Below the pieces are notes generated by a model. That model was not told the DNA's origin. It worked only from the letters and a program-made list of their open reading frames with translations, and did no database searches. A DNA stretch of 64,000 bases from positions 160,001 to 224,000 of the IMG/VR virus record IMGVR_UViG_3300037067_027616. One strand, written 5' to 3'. A program made the position numbers and the translations under genes. Shown one piece after another: positions 2,634-50,479 of the stretch (positions are counted from its first letter, which is position 1; every line of letters starts with the position of its first letter). The stretch is from a virus (lineage: Duplodnaviria; Caudoviricetes).

Positions 2634-4094
2634 ATGTACTACACCAAACTATCGTCATACATAAGGAAAATCGCCGCCTCCGGTGGTGGTCCTATTCCTA
2701 AAAGGTCCTTCGGAAAAACAGGCCTCGATGTTACCATCCTCGGACTCGGGGGCGGCGCCGTTGTGGGTCTCAAAGGTAAAGAAAACGAGAGCAAAGCCGA
2801 AGGTGTGATCCGGGCTGCCTTGAGGTTCGGGGTCAATTACTTTGACACCTCTCCGGAGTACGGCCCCAGTGAGGTTCGTATAGGCTCCGCGTTGGGCAAG
2901 GATAGGCCTTCAGTCGTTTTGGCGACCAAGACCCATGACAGGACGAGGGATGGCTCCTTGAGGCTCCTAGAGGCCTCCTTAAAGGCCCTAAAGACCGACC
3001 ATGTTGATGTGTGGCAGATGCACCACATCGACCATGAAGATGAAGTAAAAATGGTACTAGCAAAGGATGGCGCTTTAAAGGCCCTGCAGGAGGCTAAATC
3101 GCAAGGTATGACACGTTATATAGGTGTCACCGGCCATTACGACCCAGCCCCCTTATCTGCCCTCATAAAGACGGGGGAATTGGACACGGCTCTGCTCGCC
3201 ATGAACGCCGCAGACGTACACGACCAACACAGTTTCATAAAAGGAGTCCTTCCATCGGCTATAAAAGCCAGGCTTGGCGTGGTGTGCATGAAGGTCGCGA
3301 GCATGGGAAGGATATTTAACCCTTGGAATCTCAATAACATACGTGACGCTCTTTATTATTGTCTCAGTCTTCCTGTGTCCACGGCAATCATCGGGGTGGA
3401 TGACGAGGATCAACTTGCAGAGAACGTGACATTAGTTAAAATGTTTGAGAAGCTATCCGATGACGAAATGGGTCGCATCCACGATCTCACTGAAGAATAC
3501 CATGAAATTGCTAATTTCTTCAGGAAGGGTCACGAGGTTCACAACCCTTTCTGGAAGCCCTACGGTTACCAGGGAAAAAAAGCATCCGATAAAGGAAAAA
3601 GGTTGATCATACTTCGAGGTATAAGTGGCACGGGCAAGTCGACCTTGGCGAGGGATCTCGAGCGTGAACACAAGACGAAGGCGCTCGGGTCAGACGACTT
3701 TTTCATGAAGGGCGGGAAGTACATCTATGACATGGCCAAGCTTTCGGAGGCCCACTCTTGGAACCAGCAGAGGGTACGCGAAACGATGAAGCGTGGTGAC
3801 CCCGTAGTCATTGTTGATAACACGAACACACAAGCTTGGGAGATGAAGCCGTACGTGCAGGCCGCCAAGGAATTTGGGTACTCTGTAGAATTCAAGGAGC
3901 CCGGTTGGTCGCCGAAACTCAAGGACGAGCAAGGCAAATGGAATGTCGACTTCATTGAAAAATTGCAAAGAAACAAAGATAGATCAAACATAGGAAAAAC
4001 GATACCGCGCGAGGTGCTGGAGAGAATGCGCGACAGGTACCAATATGGGGTTACTGAAGAAGACGTACTCAAATCCCAAATGCCAGAAATTTGA
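2634..4094 (+). CDS. Aldo/keto reductase fused to a P-loop (AAA_33/N4BP2-like) kinase
   Basis: GVNYFDTSPEYG and VVLATK (AKR motifs); LRGISGTGKST, VIVDNTN and MKPY in the C-terminal domain. Confidence 0.85.
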   Translation: MYYTKLSSYIRKIAASGGGPIPKRSFGKTGLDVTILGLGGGAVVGLKGKENESKAEGVIRAALRFGVNYFDTSPEYGPSEVRIGSALGKDRPSVVLATKTHDRTRDGSLRLLEASLKALKTDHVDVWQMHHIDHEDEVKMVLAKDGALKALQEAKSQGMTRYIGVTGHYDPAPLSALIKTGELDTALLAMNAADVHDQHSFIKGVLPSAIKARLGVVCMKVASMGRIFNPWNLNNIRDALYYCLSLPVSTAIIGVDDEDQLAENVTLVKMFEKLSDDEMGRIHDLTEEYHEIANFFRKGHEVHNPFWKPYGYQGKKASDKGKRLIILRGISGTGKSTLARDLEREHKTKALGSDDFFMKGGKYIYDMAKLSEAHSWNQQRVRETMKRGDPVVIVDNTNTQAWEMKPYVQAAKEFGYSVEFKEPGWSPKLKDEQGKWNVDFIEKLQRNKDRSNIGKTIPREVLERMRDRYQYGVTEEDVLKSQMPEI

Positions 4095-4605: not shown

Positions 4606-6396
4606 TCAGACAAGTTCCTCAAAAGGTGGGGCTTTTAACGGAAGACCTTTTTCCCTATCCTCTTGTTTCTTTTTGGTTTTTTGTAAAATTTCAGAGTCAA
4701 CTTTATTCTTCAATATTTTCTCCCAGCCTTTTCTTGAAGCCATCTCGCCAAGTATCTTTCGAGCCTCCGCCGCGCGTTGGCGTTCGTCCATGTTGTCAAA
4801 GTGCCCTTCTAAAAGCTTCTTTTTTAGTATTGCTTTTATTTCCCCAACTACAGGGCCTTTTGTAACTTCTGAAAATTCCGCCATGATTTCATCGCCGGAC
4901 ATGGGATCTATATACCGATACGACCCTCCGGAGGGCGCCAGCAATCCTTTTTTGATGTCATCATCCTTGAGTCTTTTTAAGTCTTGTTTAATTTTGTCGA
5001 TCCTTGATTTTTCAGTATCATCGAGAGCTTGATCAGCCTCGATGACAGCAAGAGCGTCATCAAGGTCATTGAAAACACACTGCAGGAAAGTCCTCAAAAG
5101 CATCGATGATTCTTGGGGCGTTTTCGGATCCTTGGTAAAAGCCATATGCGAATGTATTATTTTGGTAATAGAATCAATATCCTCGTTATCGTACGTAAGT
5201 TCTTTGAGGGCTTTTCTTGCCAAATCTACGCCGTATTCAGCGTGTTCTGCGAAATATACGACGGGCTTTCCTTGTTTGTTGATTGCCTTTTTCTCGGTTA
5301 AAAGCTTGCCGATGTCATGGAACAAAGCTGCAAGTCGTGCTTTTTTGGAACCCGGAGTCTTTTTTATAACATCAAGGGTATGTTCCCACACGTTCTCCCC
5401 ATGATGCCATTTTCTTGATGCATCGTGATATACATCGAGCATTTTAGATAAAGTGGGTGATACAAAATCGAGGACACCCATGTCACGCATAAGATCTAGC
5501 CCTTCTGCTGCGACATTCCCATCAGGGTGTTCGAGTATTTTGTTTAATTCTTCACGGATTCTTTCTGGTTTTACTTTGTCTTTTATGATCTCTTTTCCTT
5601 CTTGAGTCTTTGCGAAACGCTTTATGAATTCCTCCGTACTCGGGTCAAATTCAAAATTAGGAAGTTTTCCTTTGAAGCGAATTATGCGGAAAATTCGCAA
5701 TGGGTCGTCTTTGTATATCTGAACCATGCCCCCTGGATGAGGGGGTGGTTTCAGAATTTTTTTCTTTAGATCTTCAACACCGCCGACGAAATCCTTTATT
5801 TCTCCGGACGCGACGTCTTGGTATATGGCGTTCACAGTTAAGTCGCGCCTTTTTGCATCATCTTCAAGTGTGGTATACTTCACGTAGGAAGGTCCACGTC
5901 CTTTGATATAGGGTCCCTCAAGCCGCGGGGGTGTCATTTCAATGACATACCCTGACACATCGATGCCATCGTAAACGAATGGCTGTTGCTTTTCTCGTGG
6001 CTGGACAAGGGCAAGAGTCCAAATGCCATACTGCTCCTTGAGTACCGCCGGGTTGTTAGGGGTTGTGATCCCCAAAGCATCGCCTAATTTTTTTGTGAAT
6101 ATCTCTGCGGCTTTCATGTCGTCTTCTGGGGAGTCCACGACAAGATCTATATCTTTGGGATTCGTGTTCAACATCTTGTCCCGCACGTATCCACCGACAG
6201 CGTAGACTTTGCCTTTGTATTCGGGGAGAGTAGTCGTGACCATGTCTTTCAGAAGCTTTTCTACAGCCTTCGTTTGTGTCGCCTTATCCTCTTTGGACTT
6301 ACGGATTTCGGTTACCGTATGTGCCGTTTGCTTCTGAAGATATGCCAACACTACTCTTATCGAATCTCCCATAGCATCTTTATCCTTGTTATTCAT
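4606..6396 (-). CDS. cca: CCA-adding tRNA nucleotidyltransferase / poly(A) polymerase family with HD domain
   Basis: VGGYVRD, DID, DAKRRDLTVNA, DDPLRIFR, ERIREEL; VWEHT...LFHDIGK. Confidence 0.9.
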   Translation of the reverse strand: MNNKDKDAMGDSIRVVLAYLQKQTAHTVTEIRKSKEDKATQTKAVEKLLKDMVTTTLPEYKGKVYAVGGYVRDKMLNTNPKDIDLVVDSPEDDMKAAEIFTKKLGDALGITTPNNPAVLKEQYGIWTLALVQPREKQQPFVYDGIDVSGYVIEMTPPRLEGPYIKGRGPSYVKYTTLEDDAKRRDLTVNAIYQDVASGEIKDFVGGVEDLKKKILKPPPHPGGMVQIYKDDPLRIFRIIRFKGKLPNFEFDPSTEEFIKRFAKTQEGKEIIKDKVKPERIREELNKILEHPDGNVAAEGLDLMRDMGVLDFVSPTLSKMLDVYHDASRKWHHGENVWEHTLDVIKKTPGSKKARLAALFHDIGKLLTEKKAINKQGKPVVYFAEHAEYGVDLARKALKELTYDNEDIDSITKIIHSHMAFTKDPKTPQESSMLLRTFLQCVFNDLDDALAVIEADQALDDTEKSRIDKIKQDLKRLKDDDIKKGLLAPSGGSYRYIDPMSGDEIMAEFSEVTKGPVVGEIKAILKKKLLEGHFDNMDERQRAAEARKILGEMASRKGWEKILKNKVDSEILQKTKKKQEDREKGLPLKAPPFEELV

Positions 6397-8536: not shown

Positions 8537-9445
8537 TCAGAAAGGTCTATCATCAAGTTGCAGAACGACTAAATTAAGGTCACGCCAATTTGCACAGACC
8601 GATGGACGGTCATCCACCACGTAGCGAACGTCATATTTCCCGGCAACGTTGGCCTCGTACAGTTCACGTTTGACAGTGGTATCCGGCCTTGAATCCCCCG
8701 TAACGCGCATGAAAAAAGGTCCATCAGACGGCAACCCGGCTACATCGGAGAGCCATTGGCACGTGCCTGTGCGCCACTTGTCTTCCCTACCGGACATGAA
8801 AATAAGAGCATGCCCGGCATCCATAAGTAGTTTGACCAAAGTTACAACGTGCGCGAACGGGACATCCTCCATCAATCGGGATCCATCATAGGGGTTCCTG
8901 ATGCCCCGAGACAAGGCCAGCGTCCCATCGATGTCCACAATGATAGCCTTTGGAAGGCCTGGGATGTCCACAGGCGCCGAGTATGGCTCGATGGGGTAGT
9001 ATTGAGTCCGGCATTCGATGTGCTTTCCTTTCACATGCTTGCGGTGCATATCACGGATTATCTGCTCCGGCACGCGCTCGGACTCGGGTCGACCCTCATT
9101 ACGACGTATGGCTTCGTTCAAGTCTACATCAAAATACTTCTCGACTACCATGACATCGCCCACGCGTTTGGCGATGCGACACATGCTGTCCCAATGTTTA
9201 TCGGAGAAGTTAGTGTCATCCACGATGACATCGAAATCTCGGAGTAGCGACCTTTGGACGGCGTAATCCCGGATGTCGAGCATGAACCGTTCTTGCGCCG
9301 GGGACCAAGCCTCCCCATCAAGCATGGCGCGGAGGAGATCCTTGTTGACGCGCTTGAACCTTTTAGGGCTCCTACGCATCTCCTCTTTCGTCCACGTACT
9401 TTTTCCACTGGCTGGAATTCCTTTAGTCATTATGATGGTTCGCAT
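8537..9445 (-). CDS. pseT: T4 PseT-like polynucleotide 5'-kinase/3'-phosphatase
   Basis: GIPASGKST P-loop, VIVDDTN, IIVDIDGTL, VDDRPSV; start taken at MRTIIMT. Confidence 0.9.
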   Translation of the reverse strand: MRTIIMTKGIPASGKSTWTKEEMRRSPKRFKRVNKDLLRAMLDGEAWSPAQERFMLDIRDYAVQRSLLRDFDVIVDDTNFSDKHWDSMCRIAKRVGDVMVVEKYFDVDLNEAIRRNEGRPESERVPEQIIRDMHRKHVKGKHIECRTQYYPIEPYSAPVDIPGLPKAIIVDIDGTLALSRGIRNPYDGSRLMEDVPFAHVVTLVKLLMDAGHALIFMSGREDKWRTGTCQWLSDVAGLPSDGPFFMRVTGDSRPDTTVKRELYEANVAGKYDVRYVVDDRPSVCANWRDLNLVVLQLDDRPF

Positions 9446-10470
9446 GCTTGACCCCTTGCCAAACCGTTTGGCTTTACAGGTTTGCTTAACCAATGTTCAT
9501 CGGTTTGTACGTGGTTCTTTCTAACTAGTTTTGCCGTACTCCTTGAAAACGCCTCATATCTGAAATCAGAGGCAAGTCTTACCACGTATCCTTCAACAGG
9601 GTCGGGGCTGGCGGCACAATATTTCTCAAAGGATCTATCTACGAACTCCCTCCCCCATACTTCATGATAGAACACGGGTACTGTTTGAAGCCCTAGCAAT
9701 TTAGAATAGGTGGCTGTATCGTGCCAAGAAAGGCACCTGTTAAGGTCATCCCATATCGAGTAAACGAGAAAAAAAGAGGGGAGATTTTTGTAGGCTATGC
9801 TGTGTTCGGCATACAGGTTCTCCCCACAAACACGCCATTTTTTTGGGATATCATGTTTGATTGACCCGTGAAGGGCATGTACCCAATCGCGGCTTGGGTG
9901 CGGTCCGGAGTTTACCGATCGTGCAAATACCTTTTCTTGAGTCATCGTGGTACACTCACCGTCCATCTTCACCGTAGCCACCACTTCCTTGCCGTCAAAC
10001 AAGTTGTCGTCTTTATGCATCCTGTCATCGTTTTGGACATTTGGGGAATACGAAAAATGATACGTGCGGGGGTATTTGATGTTCCATGTGAATGAATCAA
10101 GCACTCCACCATCTTTCAAAGCTATCCGGACGCTGTCCTTCAAGAACAAGGGTCCTGGATAGCGGACGCCTGTAGGTTCCACCACATTTCCCCAGTGGTC
10201 GTATTCGTTCTCCTCATCGAAACCAGGAGGACATACACGTGACTTGATACCCGCTTTTTCCCGGAGCACGGAACACGGAATAACAGTCCGTTCTGCATCG
10301 AGGTGACAACGTTCGCACAAAGTTACTCCGTTTTCGGTGTAATACCCACCATCGGGCCACAAGCTTCTATCCATCAAGTGGTGCACGGCCGTACCGCGCG
10401 CCGGACACCCCACGCAGAGTCCCTGGTCGCGTTTCCTCACAGCTATGTTGAATTCATCCCTTGTTGGCAT
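9430..10470 (-). CDS. HNH domain fused to ATP-dependent RNA ligase
   Basis: N-terminal RD..CVGC...HH...N..TLC..CH; KYPRTYH, KMDGE, CGENLYA, EGYVVR. Confidence 0.8.
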   Translation of the reverse strand: MPTRDEFNIAVRKRDQGLCVGCPARGTAVHHLMDRSLWPDGGYYTENGVTLCERCHLDAERTVIPCSVLREKAGIKSRVCPPGFDEENEYDHWGNVVEPTGVRYPGPLFLKDSVRIALKDGGVLDSFTWNIKYPRTYHFSYSPNVQNDDRMHKDDNLFDGKEVVATVKMDGECTTMTQEKVFARSVNSGPHPSRDWVHALHGSIKHDIPKKWRVCGENLYAEHSIAYKNLPSFFLVYSIWDDLNRCLSWHDTATYSKLLGLQTVPVFYHEVWGREFVDRSFEKYCAASPDPVEGYVVRLASDFRYEAFSRSTAKLVRKNHVQTDEHWLSKPVKPNGLARGQACEPS

Positions 10471-23835: not shown

Positions 23836-23864
23836 AATATACCACACAAAAATGGTTTTGTCAA
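23836..23864 (-). promoter_or_regulatory. Promoter of tRNA block 1
   Basis: TTGACA-17-TATATT with extended -10 TG. Confidence 0.88.
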
Positions 23865-24561: not shown

Positions 24562-25224
24562 TTATTGCGAGGGACTATAGATTCCTTTGTCCACTATGAA
24601 AGCGAGAACCATACTCGAGAGTCCTGCTTTCAGTATCCCCGGCACGGGGGTGGTCCTGTCCTTCCACGTATGCAATGCCTCGCGTGCTTTCGTGGATGAC
24701 ATGTCGGGTGTGGCCAGGCCCTCCAGATACCTGTGACCACCGGTGGTGTACCATGCCCCGGGGATGTGAACGTATCCCGGCCGTGGCACAACGATAAACG
24801 ATGCGAAGATCCGCAGTTCCTCAAAGTGCTTCCACCTGCCAAAATCGAGGGCATTGTCCAAGCCTATGACGAATTTGAAGGTCACATCTTCGTAGTCGCC
24901 GGCGAGGTTCATGGCCGTCTTCATGGTGCTGCCGTCATCCCAACAGGACCACCGTTTGGCGACTTCAAACTCGAAGTCGCTGACGATTATGCGCTTCTCT
25001 CCTTCAGGCACGGCGAGTGTACACAATTTCACCCGTTCGGAGAAGTCTGTCATGACCTTGCCGAAACAATGATCGATGCACGGCATCAGCCATACCTCAT
25101 CCACCTTGAGTGTCGGGTTGTTGAGTATCCCCAAGGCAACATCGATGTGTCCCGTGGTCGGCGGGTCGAAAGATCCCCCGAACACAGCCACCACCTTGGT
25201 CGGTTTTTTATCCGTGACGGTCAT
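24562..25224 (-). CDS. nadD: Nicotinate-nucleotide adenylyltransferase
   Basis: VFGGSFDPPTTGH, VWLMP, VIGLDN...W, VPRPGY, MSST. Confidence 0.88.
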   Translation of the reverse strand: MTVTDKKPTKVVAVFGGSFDPPTTGHIDVALGILNNPTLKVDEVWLMPCIDHCFGKVMTDFSERVKLCTLAVPEGEKRIIVSDFEFEVAKRWSCWDDGSTMKTAMNLAGDYEDVTFKFVIGLDNALDFGRWKHFEELRIFASFIVVPRPGYVHIPGAWYTTGGHRYLEGLATPDMSSTKAREALHTWKDRTTPVPGILKAGLSSMVLAFIVDKGIYSPSQ

Positions 25225-26084: not shown

Positions 26085-26177
26085 TGGCGGAGGGTGAAGG
26101 ATTTGAACCTTCGGTAGAGCTTTTGGCCCTACAGACGTTTAGCAAACGCCCGCTTTAGACCTCTCAGCCAACCCTCC
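26085..26177 (-). tRNA. tRNA-Ser(GCT)
   Basis: Loop TT-GCT-AA, long variable arm, CCA. Confidence 0.93.
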
Positions 26178-26180
26178 GTT

Positions 26181-26269
26181 TGGTAGGTCCGGGTGGAATT
26201 GAACCACCGTTTACCTTTCGGCCCCTTGCGTATCAGACAAGTGCTCTAACCGGGCTGAGCTACGGACCT
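26181..26269 (-). tRNA. tRNA-Ile(GAT) with an unusual long variable arm
   Basis: Loop CT-GAT-AC; GCC-GAAA-GGT extra arm; CCA. Confidence 0.85.
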
Positions 26270-26276
26270 GCATATA

Positions 26277-26369
26277 TGGTAGCGGGGGCAAGATTCGAAC
26301 TTGCGACCTCCGTTAGGAAGTTCTGGCTTATGAGGCCAGTGACTTAGACCTGCTCTAGTCTACCCCGCA
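26277..26369 (-). tRNA. tRNA-Met(CAT), initiator-like acceptor, long variable arm
   Basis: T1:T72 mismatch, GCGGGG stem, loop CT-CAT-AA, CCA. Confidence 0.82.
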
Positions 26370-26375
26370 ATGTAT

Positions 26376-26747
26376 TCATCTCAACTCTATTTTTGCCCCG
26401 ACCTCCTCGAACCTCGTTTTGAGAGCCTCGGCCTCCGCTTTCGCGAGTCCGTCCTTTATCACCGCTCCTGGCACCGTGTTCTTGCCGGCGTCCATCAAAC
26501 TTGCTCCGGTCACCTCACGGAGTATCTTGATGACTTGGATGCGTTTTTCTCCGACCTCTGACAATACTACCGAGAACTCTGTCTGTTCCTCGACCACCGG
26601 CGCCGTGTTTACCTGTGGCACCATCGGTGTAATCACATCCGAAGCCTTCACCCCAAATTTTTCTTCAAGCGCCCGGGTGAGTTCGACAAGTTCCATCACG
26701 GTCATCGACCCGAAGGCTTCAAGCAGCTGCTCGTTTGTATAAGACAT
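26376..26747 (-). CDS. rplL: Ribosomal protein bL12 (L7/L12)
   Basis: MTVMELVEL..ALEEKFGV.A, EEQTEFSVVL, IQVIK..RE.TG, GAKIEL. Confidence 0.92.
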   Translation of the reverse strand: MSYTNEQLLEAFGSMTVMELVELTRALEEKFGVKASDVITPMVPQVNTAPVVEEQTEFSVVLSEVGEKRIQVIKILREVTGASLMDAGKNTVPGAVIKDGLAKAEAEALKTRFEEVGAKIELR

Positions 26748-26771
26748 GTCTATCTCCTGTCTTTGAATGTC

Positions 26772-26850
26772 TGGTACCGGAAGCCGGGGTCGAACCGGCG
26801 ACAGACCTGCCGTATGAGAGCAGCGCTCTACCACGCTGAGCTATTCCGGT
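26772..26850 (-). tRNA. tRNA-Met(CAT), elongator-like
   Basis: Loop CT-CAT-AC, CCA. Confidence 0.85.
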
Positions 26851-26857
26851 ATAACTT

Positions 26858-27226
26858 TTACTGCAAAACTTTCAGCTTGTATTTCTTCACCAATCCTTCT
26901 ATTTCTTTTTGATCCGAGTTTATCCACAAGAAATGCTCCGGACTCGTCATCGTCCTGAAACCTGTTTCCAAGTACCATTTCCAATTTTCGAAGCCCCTCC
27001 GATGGATGAACACACAAAGAGATCCAGGTAACAGCTTCATTACATCCTCAAAAGACATTTGAACAGTTTGTCTTTGATATGACTTTTTGCAATCTAACGT
27101 ATCCACCCACCAATGAAAAGATTTTTCCTTTGCCTCACGAAGAAGACTTTCCTGTCTTTTCAAAGAAAGCCTCTGAATATCGTAAAAAACATCAGGACTG
27201 TGGATCATTTTCTCCGTGCTTTCCAC
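26858..27226 (-). CDS. Hypothetical protein
   Basis: ORF in the co-directional run. Confidence 0.5.
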   Translation of the reverse strand: MESTEKMIHSPDVFYDIQRLSLKRQESLLREAKEKSFHWWVDTLDCKKSYQRQTVQMSFEDVMKLLPGSLCVFIHRRGFENWKWYLETGFRTMTSPEHFLWINSDQKEIEGLVKKYKLKVLQ

Positions 27227-27462
27227 AACGGGTCAGGATCGTATGACTCCATCACCCCGTTTCTCCAATAATAACTTGTCCAAGGTTCCCATTTCCACCG
27301 ATAATCGCAGATATCCCAAGGATTGAAATATCTGCGGTACGCATTACCGTTTGGAACATCTTCCGTGTTTCTGACGATACGGTTGGCGTACCTCTTCATC
27401 CAACGCTTGCGTGCGGTACCATACCCATCGACAGTCCACGGCTCCCTGTAGGAACGTGACAT
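27205..27462 (-). CDS. Small basic Trp/Arg-rich protein (MSRSYR...WDICDY)
   Basis: AAGGAG SD inside a hairpin with an upstream amber-containing mini-ORF. Confidence 0.65.
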   Translation of the reverse strand: MSRSYREPWTVDGYGTARKRWMKRYANRIVRNTEDVPNGNAYRRYFNPWDICDYRWKWEPWTSYYWRNGVMESYDPDPLWKARRK

Positions 27463-27527
27463 GCTCCAGCTCCTTTGTTAAGGTAACTAATGCATGTGTT
27501 CCCCCTTTTCTTTTGTTTGACGTGTGT

Positions 27528-27743
27528 TCATGCCGCTTCTACCATTTCCTCACGGTACTTCCTGATGTACCGCATAAGATAAATAGCTTTGTCATCACGT
27601 AGGAAAGTGGCATTGCCCACATCGCTGATCGGTACCGGGAACAGAAAACCTGAGTCCGTTTTGTACCACAGTTCATTGTCCCTGTAGTACTGGAAGTGGG
27701 CTTTCTGCTCCTTCACCAGGTCAATCAGCTTCGGCGTGGACAC
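27528..27743 (-). CDS. Small hypothetical phage protein
   Basis: Compact ORF with SD. Confidence 0.55.
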   Translation of the reverse strand: MSTPKLIDLVKEQKAHFQYYRDNELWYKTDSGFLFPVPISDVGNATFLRDDKAIYLMRYIRKYREEMVEAA

Positions 27744-27763
27744 CTGACACCTTCCTTTCTATT

Positions 27764-27841
27764 TGGCGGGGGTGACGAGGCTCGAACTCGCGAATCTCGA
27801 CCGTGACAGGGTCGCGTGCTAACCAGCTGCACCACACCCCC
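27764..27841 (-). tRNA. tRNA-Asp(GTC)
   Basis: Loop CT-GTC-AC, G73, CCA. Confidence 0.93.
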
Positions 27842-28359
27842 GTATTTTACTTGTCCTCAACTACATCGAACCAATCTCCTGCGATCGTGTAGCAACTATG
27901 ATCCTCTTCGCGTTCCTTTGATATCTTCCTGCATTTCTCGCACTCACCCTCTGCGGTCGTGTGCACGCAGATCACTTCCTCGTACAGAGGATCCCAATTC
28001 ACGAATACCTTTGCCATGTTATGCTACTTCCTGCTTAAGGATATTCTCTTCAATGTACTTCTTTACCATCCTTGGTGTAACTGATATATTGCCGTACTCA
28101 GCGCAACCATAACACTCGGCACAATGCTCTTCTGTCACACCACAACGCTCTGGAGACAACTTGAAATACTCCAACGGCACTCGGTAGAACTTCTTTGTCG
28201 GAGAGTATATGCCGATTGTTCCTTTGACTCCATTTATTAGGTTGAGTAATCCTTGGAGTCCATTCACTACCCCAACTTTCCGAGTCGACCACACCCAAGC
28301 CTCTCCATTGATGTGCACTTTTCTCGGGGAACTCATAGTGTGTCACTCCCTCTCAAATT

Positions 28360-28436
28360 TGGTGGTCCCGAACGGATTTGAACCGCTGACGCCCAGGTCT
28401 TCGGCCTGGCGCTCTACCGGGCTGAGCTACAGGACC
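28360..28436 (-). tRNA. tRNA-Phe(GAA)
   Basis: Loop CC-GAA-GA (C33), CCA. Confidence 0.9.
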
Positions 28437-28516
28437 ACGATATAACACGTGGCCCTTGTAGCCACGTGTTTATGTAGAGTCTGTAAATCGATCTTCCATC
28501 TCATATCTCCTAAACG

Positions 28517-28553
28517 AAAAAACCCCACCGATCCTTTTGGGCCCGGTGGGGTT
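28517..28553 (-). terminator. Attenuator terminator of tRNA block 2
   Basis: AACCCCACCGG...TCGGTGGGG followed by TTTTTT. Confidence 0.88.
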
Positions 28554-28578
28554 CAGAATGCTAACGAGTCCACCGGGC

Positions 28579-28650
28579 TTACATGGCAATATCCATGCTA
28601 TCAAAGTCGATAGCGCTGAAGATAATGCTGATGCCGATGGTAGTACGCAT
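28579..28650 (-). CDS. Leader peptide 2 (MRTTIGISIIFSAIDFDSMDIAM)
   Basis: AAGGAG upstream; rich in ATC/AGC/TTC/GAC/ATG; antiterminator directly follows the TAA. Confidence 0.88.
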   Translation of the reverse strand: MRTTIGISIIFSAIDFDSMDIAM

Positions 28651-28683
28651 TGAAAGTATTGCTCCTTTTACGACGTTGGGCAT

Positions 28684-28712
28684 AATATACCACGGATTTA
28701 GAAGATTGTCAA
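28684..28712 (-). promoter_or_regulatory. Promoter of tRNA block 2
   Basis: TTGACA-17-TATATT with extended TG. Confidence 0.88.
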
Positions 28713-28725
28713 TAGGAATCTTATA

Positions 28726-29148
28726 TTAAGTGATCCCTGCGAGTATCTTGCCCCTCAACATGCCCTTCAAAAGGTCAACTTCACCTTCCGACTTATCCAT
28801 TGCCCTCAACCATCCAGTGACATCTTCGAGGATTAAGTCTGTTGTAGCTTCCGCCTCTATTTTATCAATGTTGTAGTCGGGATGAGCCTTCATCGCCTGA
28901 TCATAGGCCCTCTTGCCTTGGGCGCTGTCTACATACTCTTGATAGAGTTTATTCACATACTGTTGACTTTTATTCTTAAGATAGTCTGCGGTAATGAACC
29001 CTTGCGCGGTCACGGATTGGTCAATAGTATTGCTTACCACATCCAAATCATGAGCCTCTTTGATCATACCGAGGGATTCAAGATGGGAAGCTATTTTGTC
29101 GAGTTTCTTTGCGATGTCTTTCATAGGGTCATCAAAAATGATATTCAT
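28726..29148 (-). CDS. Repeat-motif protein
   Basis: LDKIASHLESLGMIKEAHDLDVVSNTID. Confidence 0.7.
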   Translation of the reverse strand: MNIIFDDPMKDIAKKLDKIASHLESLGMIKEAHDLDVVSNTIDQSVTAQGFITADYLKNKSQQYVNKLYQEYVDSAQGKRAYDQAMKAHPDYNIDKIEAEATTDLILEDVTGWLRAMDKSEGEVDLLKGMLRGKILAGIT

Positions 29149-30016
29149 TCAAATGTTGCAGTATGTCCGCTGCGTTCTCTTTTATTTCTTTTTCATAATC
29201 TCGTTGTGGGACCATAGATGACCTTGGGTCTTGAGAATTTTGGCTTATTGATACTACGGCTAAACCGTCCCCAATTCGTATTGTTATGGTGCTAACAACC
29301 ACAAAGCTTTCGTATAGTTTAGCTCTCCTCTGTGCCTTCGAAACTAGGTATCCTGGAGCGCCTCCTGTTGAGTCGAGAGCCATACCAACGCCAAAAGTCA
29401 TTCGACCGTATGTGCTGTCAACTACTTCCACGGATCCAACTGTTCTTCCTGGTTTCTGCTTTAGAAACTCATCAACTATTGGGTTAGAACCACCAAAAAC
29501 TTCCCCCAAAACTTGGGTTTTTGATACCTTCTTAGTTGGTGTTTCAGCTGTTGTATCTGCGGTATCTTGTTTTAAAGCCTGCCATTCTAGGCGTTCCTTT
29601 TGAATTGCGTCTTTAAACTTCCCAGCGTCTGCGGTCTGAAACACCCCCATTAAAGCTATAATGGCAAGAATGACTTTTGGGTTTGTGATTGTCTTTACAC
29701 CCCTCATCAATCCTTGTAGGTTAAAAGCCTCTTTATTAGAAGCCTGCCGTACCATTGAATTACCACCAAGTGCCCCGGCTATTTCATTGATAGCAACTTC
29801 CAATTTTCCTGGAGAGGTTTGCGCGAAATCGAGTACGATTTTGAGGGCTTCCTCTTTAGAAGGTAGTCCGGGTATTTTTGATACAATACCACGGATCCAT
29901 TGCCCCGCACCTGCCTCCAAAGTATTACTCACCACATCCAAATCGTGTGCCTCTTTGATCATCCCAAGGGACTCAAGGTGTGTGGAGAGGGAATCAAGGC
30001 GGTAAGTGATTTTCAT
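29132..30016 (-). CDS. Repeat-motif protein with a hydrophobic segment
   Basis: LDSLSTHLESLGMIKEAHDLDVVSNTLE. Confidence 0.7.
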   Translation of the reverse strand: MKITYRLDSLSTHLESLGMIKEAHDLDVVSNTLEAGAGQWIRGIVSKIPGLPSKEEALKIVLDFAQTSPGKLEVAINEIAGALGGNSMVRQASNKEAFNLQGLMRGVKTITNPKVILAIIALMGVFQTADAGKFKDAIQKERLEWQALKQDTADTTAETPTKKVSKTQVLGEVFGGSNPIVDEFLKQKPGRTVGSVEVVDSTYGRMTFGVGMALDSTGGAPGYLVSKAQRRAKLYESFVVVSTITIRIGDGLAVVSISQNSQDPRSSMVPQRDYEKEIKENAADILQHLNEYHF

Positions 30017-30030
30017 GATATGATGCCTTA

Positions 30031-30774
30031 TTAAAACTTGGGTTTCAGTTCTTTGGCATTATCTAATGCTGTTTTGTATTCTTTGTTATCCGGATACATT
30101 TTGCAAAGCCTGTCTATAGCGTTGACAATTTGCTGTTTGTTTTCTTCCCCAAGAAAACCCCTGCCTACAATCGTGTAATAAAACCCGTGTAATACCTCTT
30201 TAGCAGGAAGGTCGCTATTATTAACATTAACTAATTCCTCATCCGTGGGATCCCTGTATGTTGTGTACGTAAATATAGAGGGTTTTTCGTTGGCTTTTTT
30301 GATCGTGCCAAGTGTTTCGGGGTGAGAAGAGTAGGGCTTTTTGTTTGCCATGACCTTATTGACTTCATCACCAAGCGTACGCGCTATTTCCGGGTATTTC
30401 TTCAAAGTAGCTACAGAGGCGCGATAGGCGCTGGAATTATCCATATCAAGAGATTCTTGTAGAAGATCCGATAGGGCTATCCGAATGTTTTCTGGCAGCA
30501 CTCTCTGGATATACGCCTCGTCAAGGAGACTGCTTGTGGCTTCGAGTGTATTACTGACGACATCCAAATCATGGGCCTCTTTGACCATCCCGAGGGACTC
30601 AAGGTGTGAGGCTATTTTATCAAGTGCAGAAGATAATTTTGCACGTAATACCTTACCGGTTTGATCAATGGTCGCACCACAATGTGGGCAGATAATTGCA
30701 CCCATGGCCACTTCAGGAGTGTTACCATAATCAACTTCTTTTCCACATCCTTGACATTTTACCTTATTAGTCAT
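30031..30774 (-). CDS. Zn-ribbon plus repeat-motif protein
   Basis: CxxC...CPHCG; LDKIASHLESLGMVKEAHDLDVVSNTLE. Confidence 0.7.
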   Translation of the reverse strand: MTNKVKCQGCGKEVDYGNTPEVAMGAIICPHCGATIDQTGKVLRAKLSSALDKIASHLESLGMVKEAHDLDVVSNTLEATSSLLDEAYIQRVLPENIRIALSDLLQESLDMDNSSAYRASVATLKKYPEIARTLGDEVNKVMANKKPYSSHPETLGTIKKANEKPSIFTYTTYRDPTDEELVNVNNSDLPAKEVLHGFYYTIVGRGFLGEENKQQIVNAIDRLCKMYPDNKEYKTALDNAKELKPKF

Positions 30775-31384
30775 GTGCTTATCAATTCTCTCTTTTTGGC
30801 TTCAACGATCTATATCGGCTGTTACCTCACGAGACACCGCTTCTTTGAGATAAATATGAGCCACCTTGAGGGGTTTAGTTCCCTTGCTCTCACGCGCCAT
30901 TGAACGAGCAGCTTGTTCACGAGTTTTATGAGACGTTCCAATGTGAGGTTGACCCATAACAACCCATCCCACACCCCCGATACGTGTCCAACCCTTTACA
31001 ATATTACCAAGAACGACCCCATCCTCGCTCACTTCATATTCTTCTTCGTTTATTTTGTGGTACGTGAAGTTACTCATCCTACATTCCGGTTTCAGAATAT
31101 GTTTACTATCAATTCTCTCTTTTTGCTTTTGCTACTTCTGATTCTAGGGACCCAAGGCGGGCAGAGTGGTTGCTGAGGCGTTCACTTAACAACGTATTTA
31201 CGTACCCCAGCGTGTCAGTGATTTTGTCCAATTTTCTGTCAAATTTCGAAAAGTATTCCAAGAACACCTTGTTGCACTTCTGCTCTTGTTGTGAAATGGC
31301 CTCTTTAAGTTGATCAGGGGTGATGTGGGATTTTCCGTTTCCGCCGCTGTTAGGTGTCTTGGAGTTCACGGTGTCTTCCTCAAG

Positions 31385-31939
31385 TTAGTTGGACGGTTGG
31401 TTGCCCGATTCAATGGTGTTACTCACCACATCGAGGTCATGAGCCTCTTTGACCATCCCGATGGACTCAAGGCGGTCAGCAATTTTGTCTAAAGCAAACG
31501 GCACTGAAGCTTCTTTTGTTTTTACACCCAATGACTTAAGCATTTCTATCCGCTTTGAGTCAGTGACGTTCATTGGAGACAGAGGGGTGTATGTGAACGT
31601 AATATCGAACCTGTCGAGAGGATCCTCAACAGAGCCTGCGCCGTGTGCCTTTATCTGTGCAGGAACAACGCGTTGTACGCCTGCAGGGGTGACAAAAACT
31701 CCTAGGAAATTCCAAATCTTCGATTTGTTTGGCATCTCATTGTCGTAGAAGGATTCCACGAGACTGAATGTAGGAAGGATATCTTTGAGTTCCTTCATCA
31801 TCTTTTGGATGGGCGCCCAAGACGTGTCGTCCTTGTAAAAGTCGTGCGTGTACTTGTCGGAAATGCGACCAAAAGCGGACTTCAACTTTGCATCGGTCAT
31901 TACCGGGAGGGATTCAGTCTGCACACCGGATTCATTCAT
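31385..31939 (-). CDS. Repeat-motif protein (motif at C-terminus)
   Basis: LDKIADRLESIGMVKEAHDLDVVSNTIE. Confidence 0.7.
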   Translation of the reverse strand: MNESGVQTESLPVMTDAKLKSAFGRISDKYTHDFYKDDTSWAPIQKMMKELKDILPTFSLVESFYDNEMPNKSKIWNFLGVFVTPAGVQRVVPAQIKAHGAGSVEDPLDRFDITFTYTPLSPMNVTDSKRIEMLKSLGVKTKEASVPFALDKIADRLESIGMVKEAHDLDVVSNTIESGNQPSN

Positions 31940-31947
31940 ACTATCCT

Positions 31948-32214
31948 CTATTTCTTAACAGGGTGCTTCACAACCCTCACCGGAGCCGAAGTACGAACGA
32001 CCCCAAGCACTTTAGCTGTGTCGGTCTTTAACACGATGCTTGTGTCGTTCACGACCTTCGTGATGACCAAAGTGTCCCACACCACAGTCTTGATGGTATC
32101 GACCTTCACCGTGACAATCGTGTCAGCCTTGGCGATCTTCACCGTTTCCGTGCGTTGCGCCGCGATACATCCTATGACCATAATCAATATTATTACCCTT
32201 GAAATCCTCATCAT
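31948..32214 (-). CDS. Secreted or membrane protein with (K/V)xDT repeats
   Basis: Signal-like N-terminus; repeated DT units. Confidence 0.55.
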   Translation of the reverse strand: MMRISRVIILIMVIGCIAAQRTETVKIAKADTIVTVKVDTIKTVVWDTLVITKVVNDTSIVLKTDTAKVLGVVRTSAPVRVVKHPVKK

Positions 32215-32771
32215 TCCTGTTCCTTGTCTGCTGAAGTTCTCATGCCCGAAGCGGGGATGTCCCTGCTGAGCGTGTCAACCAAATCATCCAAAAGTGTCTT
32301 TGGTATCTTCTTCGCGATCAATTTTATGAAATTGGCGATGTTGGCAGGGGTAACGATCTTCTTAAGCTTCTGTTCTGCCTGTTCGGATTCTTCCTCGGAA
32401 AGCTTATCGATCGTGTTGCTGATAACGTCAACTTCCGCGGCTTCTTTCGTAAGACCCTTTGACTCCAAAGCATCGGCGATGGAATCAAGTACGGACGACA
32501 ACTTATTGGTGGGCACACCTTCCTCCTTGTTCATCTTCTTTATTGACTGCACCAACCTCTTGTATTCCGAATCATCGTCCCCTATAAGGTCGGCATCTCC
32601 TGGGGTCACGCCTGCGGTGTCATATGAAGAAGGCTTGTTGTTGAGGACGTTACCTATTTGTGTCCGATTCTCCAACAAGGCCTTGAATTCAGGAGTTCCT
32701 GGTTGGGCATCAGTTTCGATAGGGACGTACGCCACACCTTTGTAGTGTACCTTCACCACGTATTTTGCCAT
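32211..32771 (-). CDS. Repeat-motif protein
   Basis: LDSIADALESKGLTKEAAEVDVISNTID. Confidence 0.7.
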   Translation of the reverse strand: MAKYVVKVHYKGVAYVPIETDAQPGTPEFKALLENRTQIGNVLNNKPSSYDTAGVTPGDADLIGDDDSEYKRLVQSIKKMNKEEGVPTNKLSSVLDSIADALESKGLTKEAAEVDVISNTIDKLSEEESEQAEQKLKKIVTPANIANFIKLIAKKIPKTLLDDLVDTLSRDIPASGMRTSADKEQE

Positions 32772-35860: not shown

Positions 35861-35937
35861 TGGTGCGCCCGGTGGGATTTTAACCCACGACCATCGGTTT
35901 TAGAGACCGTCGGCTCTACACGCTGAGCTACGGGCGC
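35861..35937 (-). tRNA. Amber suppressor tRNA (CTA anticodon)
   Basis: GCGCCCG acceptor, GCTC/GAGC D stem, CGGT-CTCTAAA-ACCG, T loop TTAAAAT, CCA. Confidence 0.82.
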
Positions 35938-39686: not shown

Positions 39687-39777
39687 TGGCTGGCACGGAG
39701 AGATTTGAACTCCCGATGGGCTTTCGCCACGGCGGATTAACAGTCCGCTGCCTTAGACCAAACTAGGCTACGTGCCA
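39687..39777 (-). tRNA. tRNA-Asn(GTT) with a long variable arm
   Basis: Loop CT-GTT-AA; GGC-GAAA-GCC extra arm; CCA. Confidence 0.87.
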
Positions 39778-48868: not shown

Positions 48869-49153
48869 GGAATTTTTGTTTCTCCGTGAGATTCGGAATC
48901 CATGTGCGGATCCTCGCAGAGTACAACGAATTCTCCAGTACCTTCGAGAGCCTCAAGTTCCAAATCATCGAAGTCATTCTCTTGGAAGTTCGTCCCGTCC
49001 CACCAACGGCACATGTACGTTATCCCGTGTTTTGTCACCAGTACTCCGCACACTCTGCCGTCCTGTTTTCCATCGACGATGTGTACCCTTTGGCCCGGGC
49101 TGAACTTTGATTTTACAACCATGTGGCTCCCCTGTGGTGTGTGGTGTATGGTG

Positions 49154-49227
49154 TGGGCCCACCAAGAGTCGAACTTGGGACAGGCGGATTATGAGACCGC
49201 TACTCTAACCAACTGAGTTATGGGCCC
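49154..49227 (-). tRNA. tRNA-Ile2(CAT), lysidine-type
   Basis: GGGCCCA acceptor, loop CT-CAT-AA; leader 5 carries three ATA codons; no encoded CCA. Confidence 0.8.
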
Positions 49228-49248
49228 GTTGATTCCTGCTCATACACC

Positions 49249-49277
49249 AATATACCATTCAGCGGGACACGTGTAAA
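49249..49277 (-). promoter_or_regulatory. Possible internal promoter in tRNA block 5
   Basis: TTTACA-17-TATATT with extended TG. Confidence 0.55.
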
Positions 49278-50450: not shown

Positions 50451-50479
50451 AATATAACACAAAAAAACGGTGTTGTCAA
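50451..50479 (-). promoter_or_regulatory. Promoter of tRNA block 5
   Basis: TTGACA-17-TATATT with extended TG. Confidence 0.88.

Follow-up and report, generated by a model that had tools for sequence, protein, structure and literature searches.

The element called unit D here, which precedes a block of tRNA genes in a phage genome, is probably a ribosome-mediated transcription attenuator of the trp/his/ilv type that controls a phage tRNA operon. The window, i.e., the whole stretch of 64,000 nucleotides that was analysed, corresponds to bases 160001-224000 of an IMG/VR virus record of 466,729 bp. The part of the window from 13.9 to 50.3 kb contains 47 tRNA genes, every one of which is located on the minus strand and which together cover all 20 amino acids; the whole genome contains 49 tRNA genes. 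All parts of an attenuator, the match between leader codons and downstream anticodons, both alternative helices and their covariation are found by sequence analysis and computation. An attenuator at this position had been proposed in a sequence-only reading, and this proposal is supported by all computational tests run, which comprised sister units, relatives, covariation and footprint-masked folds; data on termination or on a response in vivo do not exist. The remaining doubt is due to the absence of transcript, ribosome or genetic data.

Unit D consists of a promoter, a short leader ORF and an intrinsic terminator with an alternative partner for one of its arms (Table 1). The promoter matches the consensus at 11 of 12 positions and has an extended -10 box; transcription is inferred to start near position 28677. 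The distance between the Shine-Dalgarno sequence and the start codon is rather long, which was counted against the attenuator reading. A longer leader of 34 amino acids starting from an ATG at 28683 was ruled out, since this ATG lies between the -10 box and the inferred transcription start. The sensor codons for Ile, Ser (AGC), Phe, Asp and Met sit at codons 5-21 of the leader, and the non-matching first codons can be explained by a possible region 1, which could act as an anti-antiterminator. The antiterminator had been described as beginning right after the TAA codon and as perfectly complementary to the terminator arm, and this is indeed the case: region 2, GCCCGGTGG, is the exact 9-nt reverse complement of region 3, CCACCGGGC. 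The terminator hairpin (28554-28520) has a folding energy of -22.6 kcal/mol, and the folding energy of the unit D region corresponds to a z-score of -3.3 in comparison to shuffles. A further hairpin is located inside the leader; it might be a pause element for RNA polymerase, but this is a guess and its function is inferred only.

Table 1. Features of unit D and of the genes behind it, given as positions in the window.
Feature	Position	Strand	Remarks
Promoter	28684..28712	-	-35 TTGACA 28712-28707; 17-nt spacer ending TG-n; -10 TATATT 28689-28684
Shine-Dalgarno AAGGAG	28662..28667	-	11 nt before ATG; CTTTCA-ATG context conserved
Leader ORF	28579..28650	-	ATG at 28650, 23 sense codons, TAA 28581-28579
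Possible region 1	28633..28641	-	codons 4-6; can pair with region 2; paired in free minimum free energy fold
Hairpin inside leader	28597..28614	-	codons 13-18; invariant, 6-7 bp; stem identical in five lineages, loop varies
Region 2 (5' antiterminator arm), GCCCGGTGG	28570..28578	-	begins at first base past the stop codon
Region 3 (3' antiterminator arm), CCACCGGGC	28541..28549	-	also within the terminator 5' arm
Intrinsic terminator	28517..28554	-	12-bp helix 28554-28543/28531-28520, 11-nt loop, six U, then CGUUU
Regulated block	26085..28436	-	Phe(GAA), Asp(GTC), CAT, bL12, CAT, Ile(GAT), Ser(GCT); small ORFs interspersed
tRNA-Phe(GAA)	28436	-	downstream of the unit D terminator
tRNA-Asp(GTC)	27841	-	unit D block
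tRNA(CAT), first in block	26850	-	unit D block
tRNA(CAT), second in block	26277-26369	-	unit D block; 93 nt
tRNA-Ile(GAT)	26181-26269	-	unit D block
tRNA-Ser(GCT)	26177	-	unit D block, last tRNA
Cytidylyltransferase/NadD-like gene	24562-25224		after the unit D block, before the next unit's promoter at 23864

The tRNA genes behind unit D follow in the order that had been read from the letters alone, i.e., Phe, Asp, two CAT, Ile(GAT) and Ser(GCT), and the presence of bL12 and of a NadD-like gene downstream was likewise confirmed, in the case of bL12 by Pfam matches to Ribosomal_L12 and to its N-terminal domain. A promoter scan revealed no other consensus promoter between 28684 and 23864; weak promoter-like sites with 9 of 12 matches are located inside the block and could feed some of the tRNAs independently. 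An extended -10-like sequence (TG-n-TATATC) in front of tRNA-Phe was rejected as a promoter, since it lacks a -35 box, is not conserved and would place the transcription start inside the tRNA. The three CAT tRNAs are named by their anticodon, as the secondary structure alone leaves undecided whether they are initiator, elongator or Ile2 tRNAs. The tRNA-Ile(GAT) and the second tRNA(CAT) of the block as well as a tRNA-Asn(GTT) elsewhere in the array (39687-39777 (-)) are, unusually for these identities, 89 to 93 nt long with an extended variable arm. The long CAT tRNA has a U-U mismatch at the top of its acceptor stem and is found again in the metagenome contigs L012 and L016.

On the minus strand, 16 of the last 19 sense codons of the leader (16 of the 22 after the start codon) are ATC/ATT, AGC, TTC/TTT, GAC/GAT or ATG, and all three Ser codons are AGC, both exactly as counted in the sequence-only reading. 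The nine codons read by the unit D block make up a fraction of 0.18 of the codons in 204 long ORFs of the genome, so that 16 of 22 has a binomial probability of 2.9e-8, and none of 3262 short ATG ORFs in the six frames of the 467-kb genome scores like the leader. For each of the five distinct anticodons of the block, the Watson-Crick codon is present in the leader; codons of the own block are enriched 4.1-fold, those of the other four blocks 0- to 0.7-fold. The six of 22 codons that fall outside the set are mostly found in region 1 or in the leader hairpin. The assignment of Ile, Ser (AGC), Phe, Asp and Met codons as sensors, which had been made for the leader in general, can be upheld with the exception of Met codon 23 and probably Ile codon 21, which are too near the stop codon.

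Unit D is also kept in five diverged metagenomic lineages (L006, L012/L013, L014 and L015). Close relatives were searched for in curated phage genomes, which gave tRNA-sized matches only, and IMG/VR yielded no relatives via the 105-aa ORF, via bL12 or via two DNA patterns derived from the leader; a homologue search with the 105-aa ORF matched only itself. The relatives were found by searching for proteins homologous to the NadD-like protein or to a 122-aa ORF of the block, which led to metagenome contigs with the same gene order, and a scan using a degenerate version of the leader pattern added two more metagenome contigs. The flanking proteins of these loci are 47-76% identical to those of the window, and unit D is always located before Phe, Asp, two or three CAT, Ile(GAT) and Ser(GCT) genes, with the Ile(GAT) gene of L015 being detected by Rfam alone and read by eye. 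In the leaders of the relatives, between 14 of 22 and 18 of 28 codons belong to the set (P = 3e-6 to 7e-9). Ser codons are AGY in 16 of 16 cases across five lineages, compared with an AGY share of 0.29 among the Ser codons of the genome. Replacements within the leader, such as Ile/Asp, Phe/Ser and Asp/Ser, are chemically radical and remain mostly within the codon set of the block; furthermore, conserved residues use the same codon in a fraction of 0.70-0.88 in the leader versus 0.33-0.47 in the neighbouring 122-aa gene of the same genome pairs. As far as can be judged from these comparisons, the leader ORF is selected as codons and not as a peptide.

Four further units of like build, consisting of a promoter, a leader, an antiterminator/terminator and a tRNA block, are present in the same genome, with -35 boxes at 50479, 46100, 39991 and 23864; they were sought via the same promoter type, and codons were ignored. 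The five leaders show a 1.5- to 4.1-fold enrichment of the codons of their own block and at most 1.0-fold of those of any other block, and the matched assignment of leaders to blocks ranks first among 120 permutations. In the largest unit, all 20 downstream anticodons have an exact Watson-Crick codon in the 40-codon leader, which was reached by none of 20,000 random leaders. The genome (467 kb) contains 56 promoter-consensus sites with no more than one mismatch, and a strong terminator follows within 120-205 nt after only five of them, all of which front tRNA blocks; thus, the architecture is specific to tRNA blocks. The Ser tRNAs that read UCN codons are located in block E, and their codons are found in leader E. 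A Pro codon in leader E of L006, which seemed to covary with an extra tRNA Pro(TGG), was dropped because the tRNA call is weak and its anticodon arm unclear.

These data also bear on the question of what is being sensed. It was considered that unit D is a real ribosome-driven attenuator, which senses general translation status or amino-acid starvation and tunes the block as a whole, bL12 and the NadD-like gene included; the match of the leader codons to the tRNAs would then merely reflect that tRNA genes are sorted by amino acid. A stalled ribosome gives the same signal whether a tRNA is uncharged or missing, and the block does contain protein genes; however, the match exists at the level of codons rather than amino acids, with Ser restricted to AGY in all lineages, the UCN-reading Ser tRNAs and their codons both belong to unit E, and the five leaders partition the codon table exactly like the tRNA blocks do. 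This explanation is therefore regarded as improbable, and an attenuator that follows the decoding of its own tRNA set remains the preferred reading.

Several other features were observed in and around the tRNA array. Between the unit D terminator and tRNA-Phe, a mini-ORF of 9-10 codons with its own ribosome-binding site (window 28445-28499 (-), L014:5067-5130 and L015:1601-1665) is followed by a 9-bp hairpin that abuts tRNA-Phe; this arrangement occurs in three lineages, is absent from L006 and L012/L013, and may serve for processing or as a further layer of control. Upstream of unit D, a run of paralogous ORFs of 140, 294, 247, 184 and 186 aa (28726-32771 (-)) shares one conserved motif of around 19 residues; no Pfam match was obtained for these ORFs, and copies are also found upstream of unit D in L012 and L013. 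A tRNA with the anticodon CTA, i.e., an amber suppressor that is assigned to Pyl by ARAGORN, is encoded at 35861-35937 (-) and conserved in a relative (L014:24-100), and the leader of unit B (46046-45981) ends with a TAG stop codon. The tRNA(CAT) at 49153-49277 (-) has its own consensus-like promoter without a leader. As three ATA codons are present in the unit A leader (50441-50382), this tRNA may be Ile2, i.e., modified with lysidine, rather than Met. Genes for tRNA repair and maturation flank the array (2634-4094, 4606-6396 and 9430-10470), encoding a kinase/ATPase, a CCA-adding nucleotidyltransferase and an RNA ligase whose N-terminus is HNH-like.

The alignment of the five relatives revealed conservation of the promoter boxes, the start context, the position of the stop codon directly before region 2, and the terminator. 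Of the cells of the terminator helix, 93% are paired, and three pairs are changed on both sides; in the antiterminator, two pairs are changed on both sides, though MAFFT shifts L015 by one column. When each lineage is folded alone, a region 2:3 helix of 7-9 bp is obtained. In L012/L013, region 2 changes from GU to AC, region 3 from AC to GU and region 4 from GU to AC, so that one stretch retains its two alternative partners. The terminator of L006 has G-C in place of an A-U pair and the antiterminator retains a G-U pair, and in L015, both antiterminator arms have lost one C-G pair and two other pairs are changed in a compensating way. The retention of two mutually exclusive helices is taken as the signature of a switch. 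The leader frame survives the expansion of a 6-nt repeat (ATC-GGC), of which L013 and L012 carry three or four additional units, as well as a 3-nt insertion in L015. The two near-identical contigs L012 and L013 differ by one copy of this repeat (L012:1196-1225 versus L013:3952-3975), and an extra copy provides one more Ile sensor codon and another region-1-like segment.

The covariation was weighed against the idea that unit D is merely an independent unit, a small gene or small RNA that starts and ends at its own promoter and terminator, with the tRNAs being transcribed from other promoters and the complementarity of regions 2 and 3 having no regulatory role. With around 160 nt from promoter to terminator, the unit is self-contained, and the weak promoter-like sites within the block would suit this idea; it does not account, however, for a region 2:3 pairing that covaries across lineages, for a conserved codon set without conserved peptide chemistry, or for an architecture that occurs only before tRNA blocks, and no consensus promoter is found from the terminator to the next unit. 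It is thus considered very improbable, and an attenuator in front of the tRNA operon explains these observations better.

The two helices were further examined by folding. Without a ribosome, the minimum free energy fold contains the terminator along with a pairing of codons 4-6 to region 2. In a comparison with shuffles, the region 1:2 duplex reached 0.07 in the window, 0.01 in L006 and 0.018 in L015, and was not significant in L012-L014; this pairing is therefore suggestive, but statistically weak. Placing a 28-nt footprint centred on codon 13 switches the window's full transcript to the antiterminator. In equilibrium folds of the full-length transcripts, the window alone switches clearly (A site at codon 13), L012/L013 do so in part, and the terminator otherwise dominates. 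Since equilibrium favours the terminator at most simulated stalls, the switch must be kinetic, as in trp. A kinetic model of attenuation is available (PMC1183508). As a kinetic proxy, footprint-masked folds were calculated for a transcript ending before region 4. The probability of the antiterminator is then 0.82-0.92 for A sites at codons 2-21 and 0.07-0.17 for a ribosome on the last two codons or the stop codon, and the relatives all show the same fold switch on this transcript. As the fold depends on the ribosome position, slow decoding of Ile, Ser (AGC), Phe, Asp and Met-19 codons predicts read-through, and fast decoding predicts termination.

Alternative helices alone do not prove that the ribosome is the effector, and since phage antitermination proteins are generally known to be common, a switch set by a small molecule, by an RNA-binding protein of the phage or the host or by a T-box-like contact with tRNA was considered as well, but is hardly credible: the conserved Shine-Dalgarno sequence, ATG, frame with in-frame indels and stop codon fixed before region 2 would only be expected if translation matters, and there is no match to a T-box, a riboswitch or a known leader family. 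At gathering score, Rfam finds no leader family, T-box or riboswitch in the window, and none of the Trp, His, Leu, Thr and Phe leader families or the T-box is matched in 28430-28730 even at E <= 10.

That the leader is translated, that ribosomes stall on it, that transcription terminates in vivo and what triggers the response physiologically are all inferences, and for the proposed ribosome-mediated attenuator, the following sequence of events is predicted. The host's sigma-70-type RNA polymerase would start transcription near 28677, and a ribosome would translate the 23-codon leader. Fast decoding of the Ile (AUC/AUU), Ser (AGC), Phe, Asp and Met codons would bring the ribosome to the last codons or the stop codon, where it would cover the 9-nt region 2; region 3 would then be free to pair with region 4, and transcription would end at the U-run (28517). 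If decoding of any codon of the set is slow, that is, if the matching charged tRNA of the host or of the phage itself is scarce, the ribosome would stall at codons 5-20. During the stall, the bare region 2 would pair with region 3 and block the terminator, and read-through would allow expression of tRNA-Phe, tRNA-Asp, two CAT tRNAs, tRNA-Ile(GAU), tRNA-Ser(GCU), bL12 and the NadD-like gene. As the products would relieve the stall, the circuit would constitute a negative feedback, which matches the supply of the tRNA set to the decoding demand. Depletion of tRNAs during infection, a mismatch in codon usage and starvation are candidate triggers, and the choice between them is still open. The design has a limit: a shortage of tRNA and amino-acid starvation are indistinguishable to it, and extra tRNA is no help against starvation.

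In enterobacteria, multivalent leaders are known from ilvGMEDA and ilvBN, which contain Ile, Leu and Val codons, and from the thr leader with Thr and Ile codons; other leaders of this kind are trpL, hisL and pheL. Like these amino-acid leaders, unit D possesses a promoter-proximal short ORF with regulatory codons for several amino acids, the 5' arm of its terminator can pair with an upstream segment that is covered by the terminating ribosome, a 1:2 hairpin is possible, and slow decoding is predicted to result in read-through; the multivalent ilv and thr leaders are the closest. In contrast to them, unit D targets tRNA genes, bL12 and a NadD-like gene instead of biosynthetic enzymes, its codons follow the anticodons of the operon (with Ser only as AGY), and it is phage-borne and one of five units that jointly cover the whole codon table. 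It has no sequence similarity to Rfam leader families. The pheST attenuator of E. coli with its leader pheM controls an aminoacyl-tRNA synthetase operon. This leader is the closest in purpose, as a component of the translation apparatus is placed under ribosome-mediated attenuation by the state of a tRNA; however, pheM senses one amino acid and controls a synthetase, whereas unit D would sense five codon families and its products are tRNAs, resulting in a direct feedback loop. The T-box leaders of Firmicutes also choose between terminator and antiterminator according to tRNA status and control translation-related genes, but the T-box RNA contacts uncharged tRNA itself, without any need for translation, whereas unit D has no T-box match and carries a conserved ORF of the translated type. 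The pheL attenuator has been described (PMC3082878).

A similar design can be read in the Caulobacter phage phiCbK (JX100813, 46800-52800; L018:4500-4835), in which tRNA-Phe, Val, Ile and Gln genes are preceded by an ORF of 32 codons with an abundance of Gln, Phe, Val and Ile codons. As in unit D, a segment of the leader is complementary to the 5' arm of the following GC-rich, U-tailed hairpin; however, the two elements have no sequence relation, the ORF of phiCbK starts a few bases past a -10-like box and is thus leaderless, and its region 2 is located inside the ORF. In the same phage, an ORF of 45 codons, many of them for Ser, Leu, Ala, Lys and Pro, is found before a block of Pro, Lys, Leu and Ser tRNAs. 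In the paper on the phiCbK genome, no RNA elements besides tRNAs are reported (PMC3556154). A full-text search of the literature found no description of leader-peptide attenuation of tRNA genes, and the design of codon-matched leader attenuators for tRNA genes seems to be unpublished.

The element is compact, its promoter and terminator signals resemble those of E. coli and the predictions that it makes are sharp, so that it can be tested in reporters or in a purified coupled system, and the similar design in phiCbK, a cultured phage, brings a test in vivo within reach. For unit D, it is predicted that synonymous recoding shifts the sensitivity between isoacceptors, and the unit could also be turned into a small synthetic sensor that reports how available chosen tRNAs are. 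It is conceivable, but at present rather doubtful, that the five units together form a codon-resolved demand sensor, which monitors decoding speed separately for each set of isoacceptors and switches on only the block of tRNAs that are in short supply. The shortage sensed in this manner could arise from the degradation of host tRNAs at takeover or from host anticodon nucleases; in such a case, the attenuators would be a trigger of counter-defence beside the genes for the CCA-adding enzyme, the kinase and the RNA ligase.

Phage tRNA genes are usually viewed as constitutive helpers that adjust for codon usage or as spares against the loss of host tRNAs, and to our knowledge, essentially nothing is known about the control of their expression. 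If the attenuator reading of unit D is true, a leader whose product is the very tRNA that is sensed would provide feedback on decoding capacity more directly than any system described to date, and a textbook mechanism would be extended from amino-acid metabolism to the viral translation machinery.
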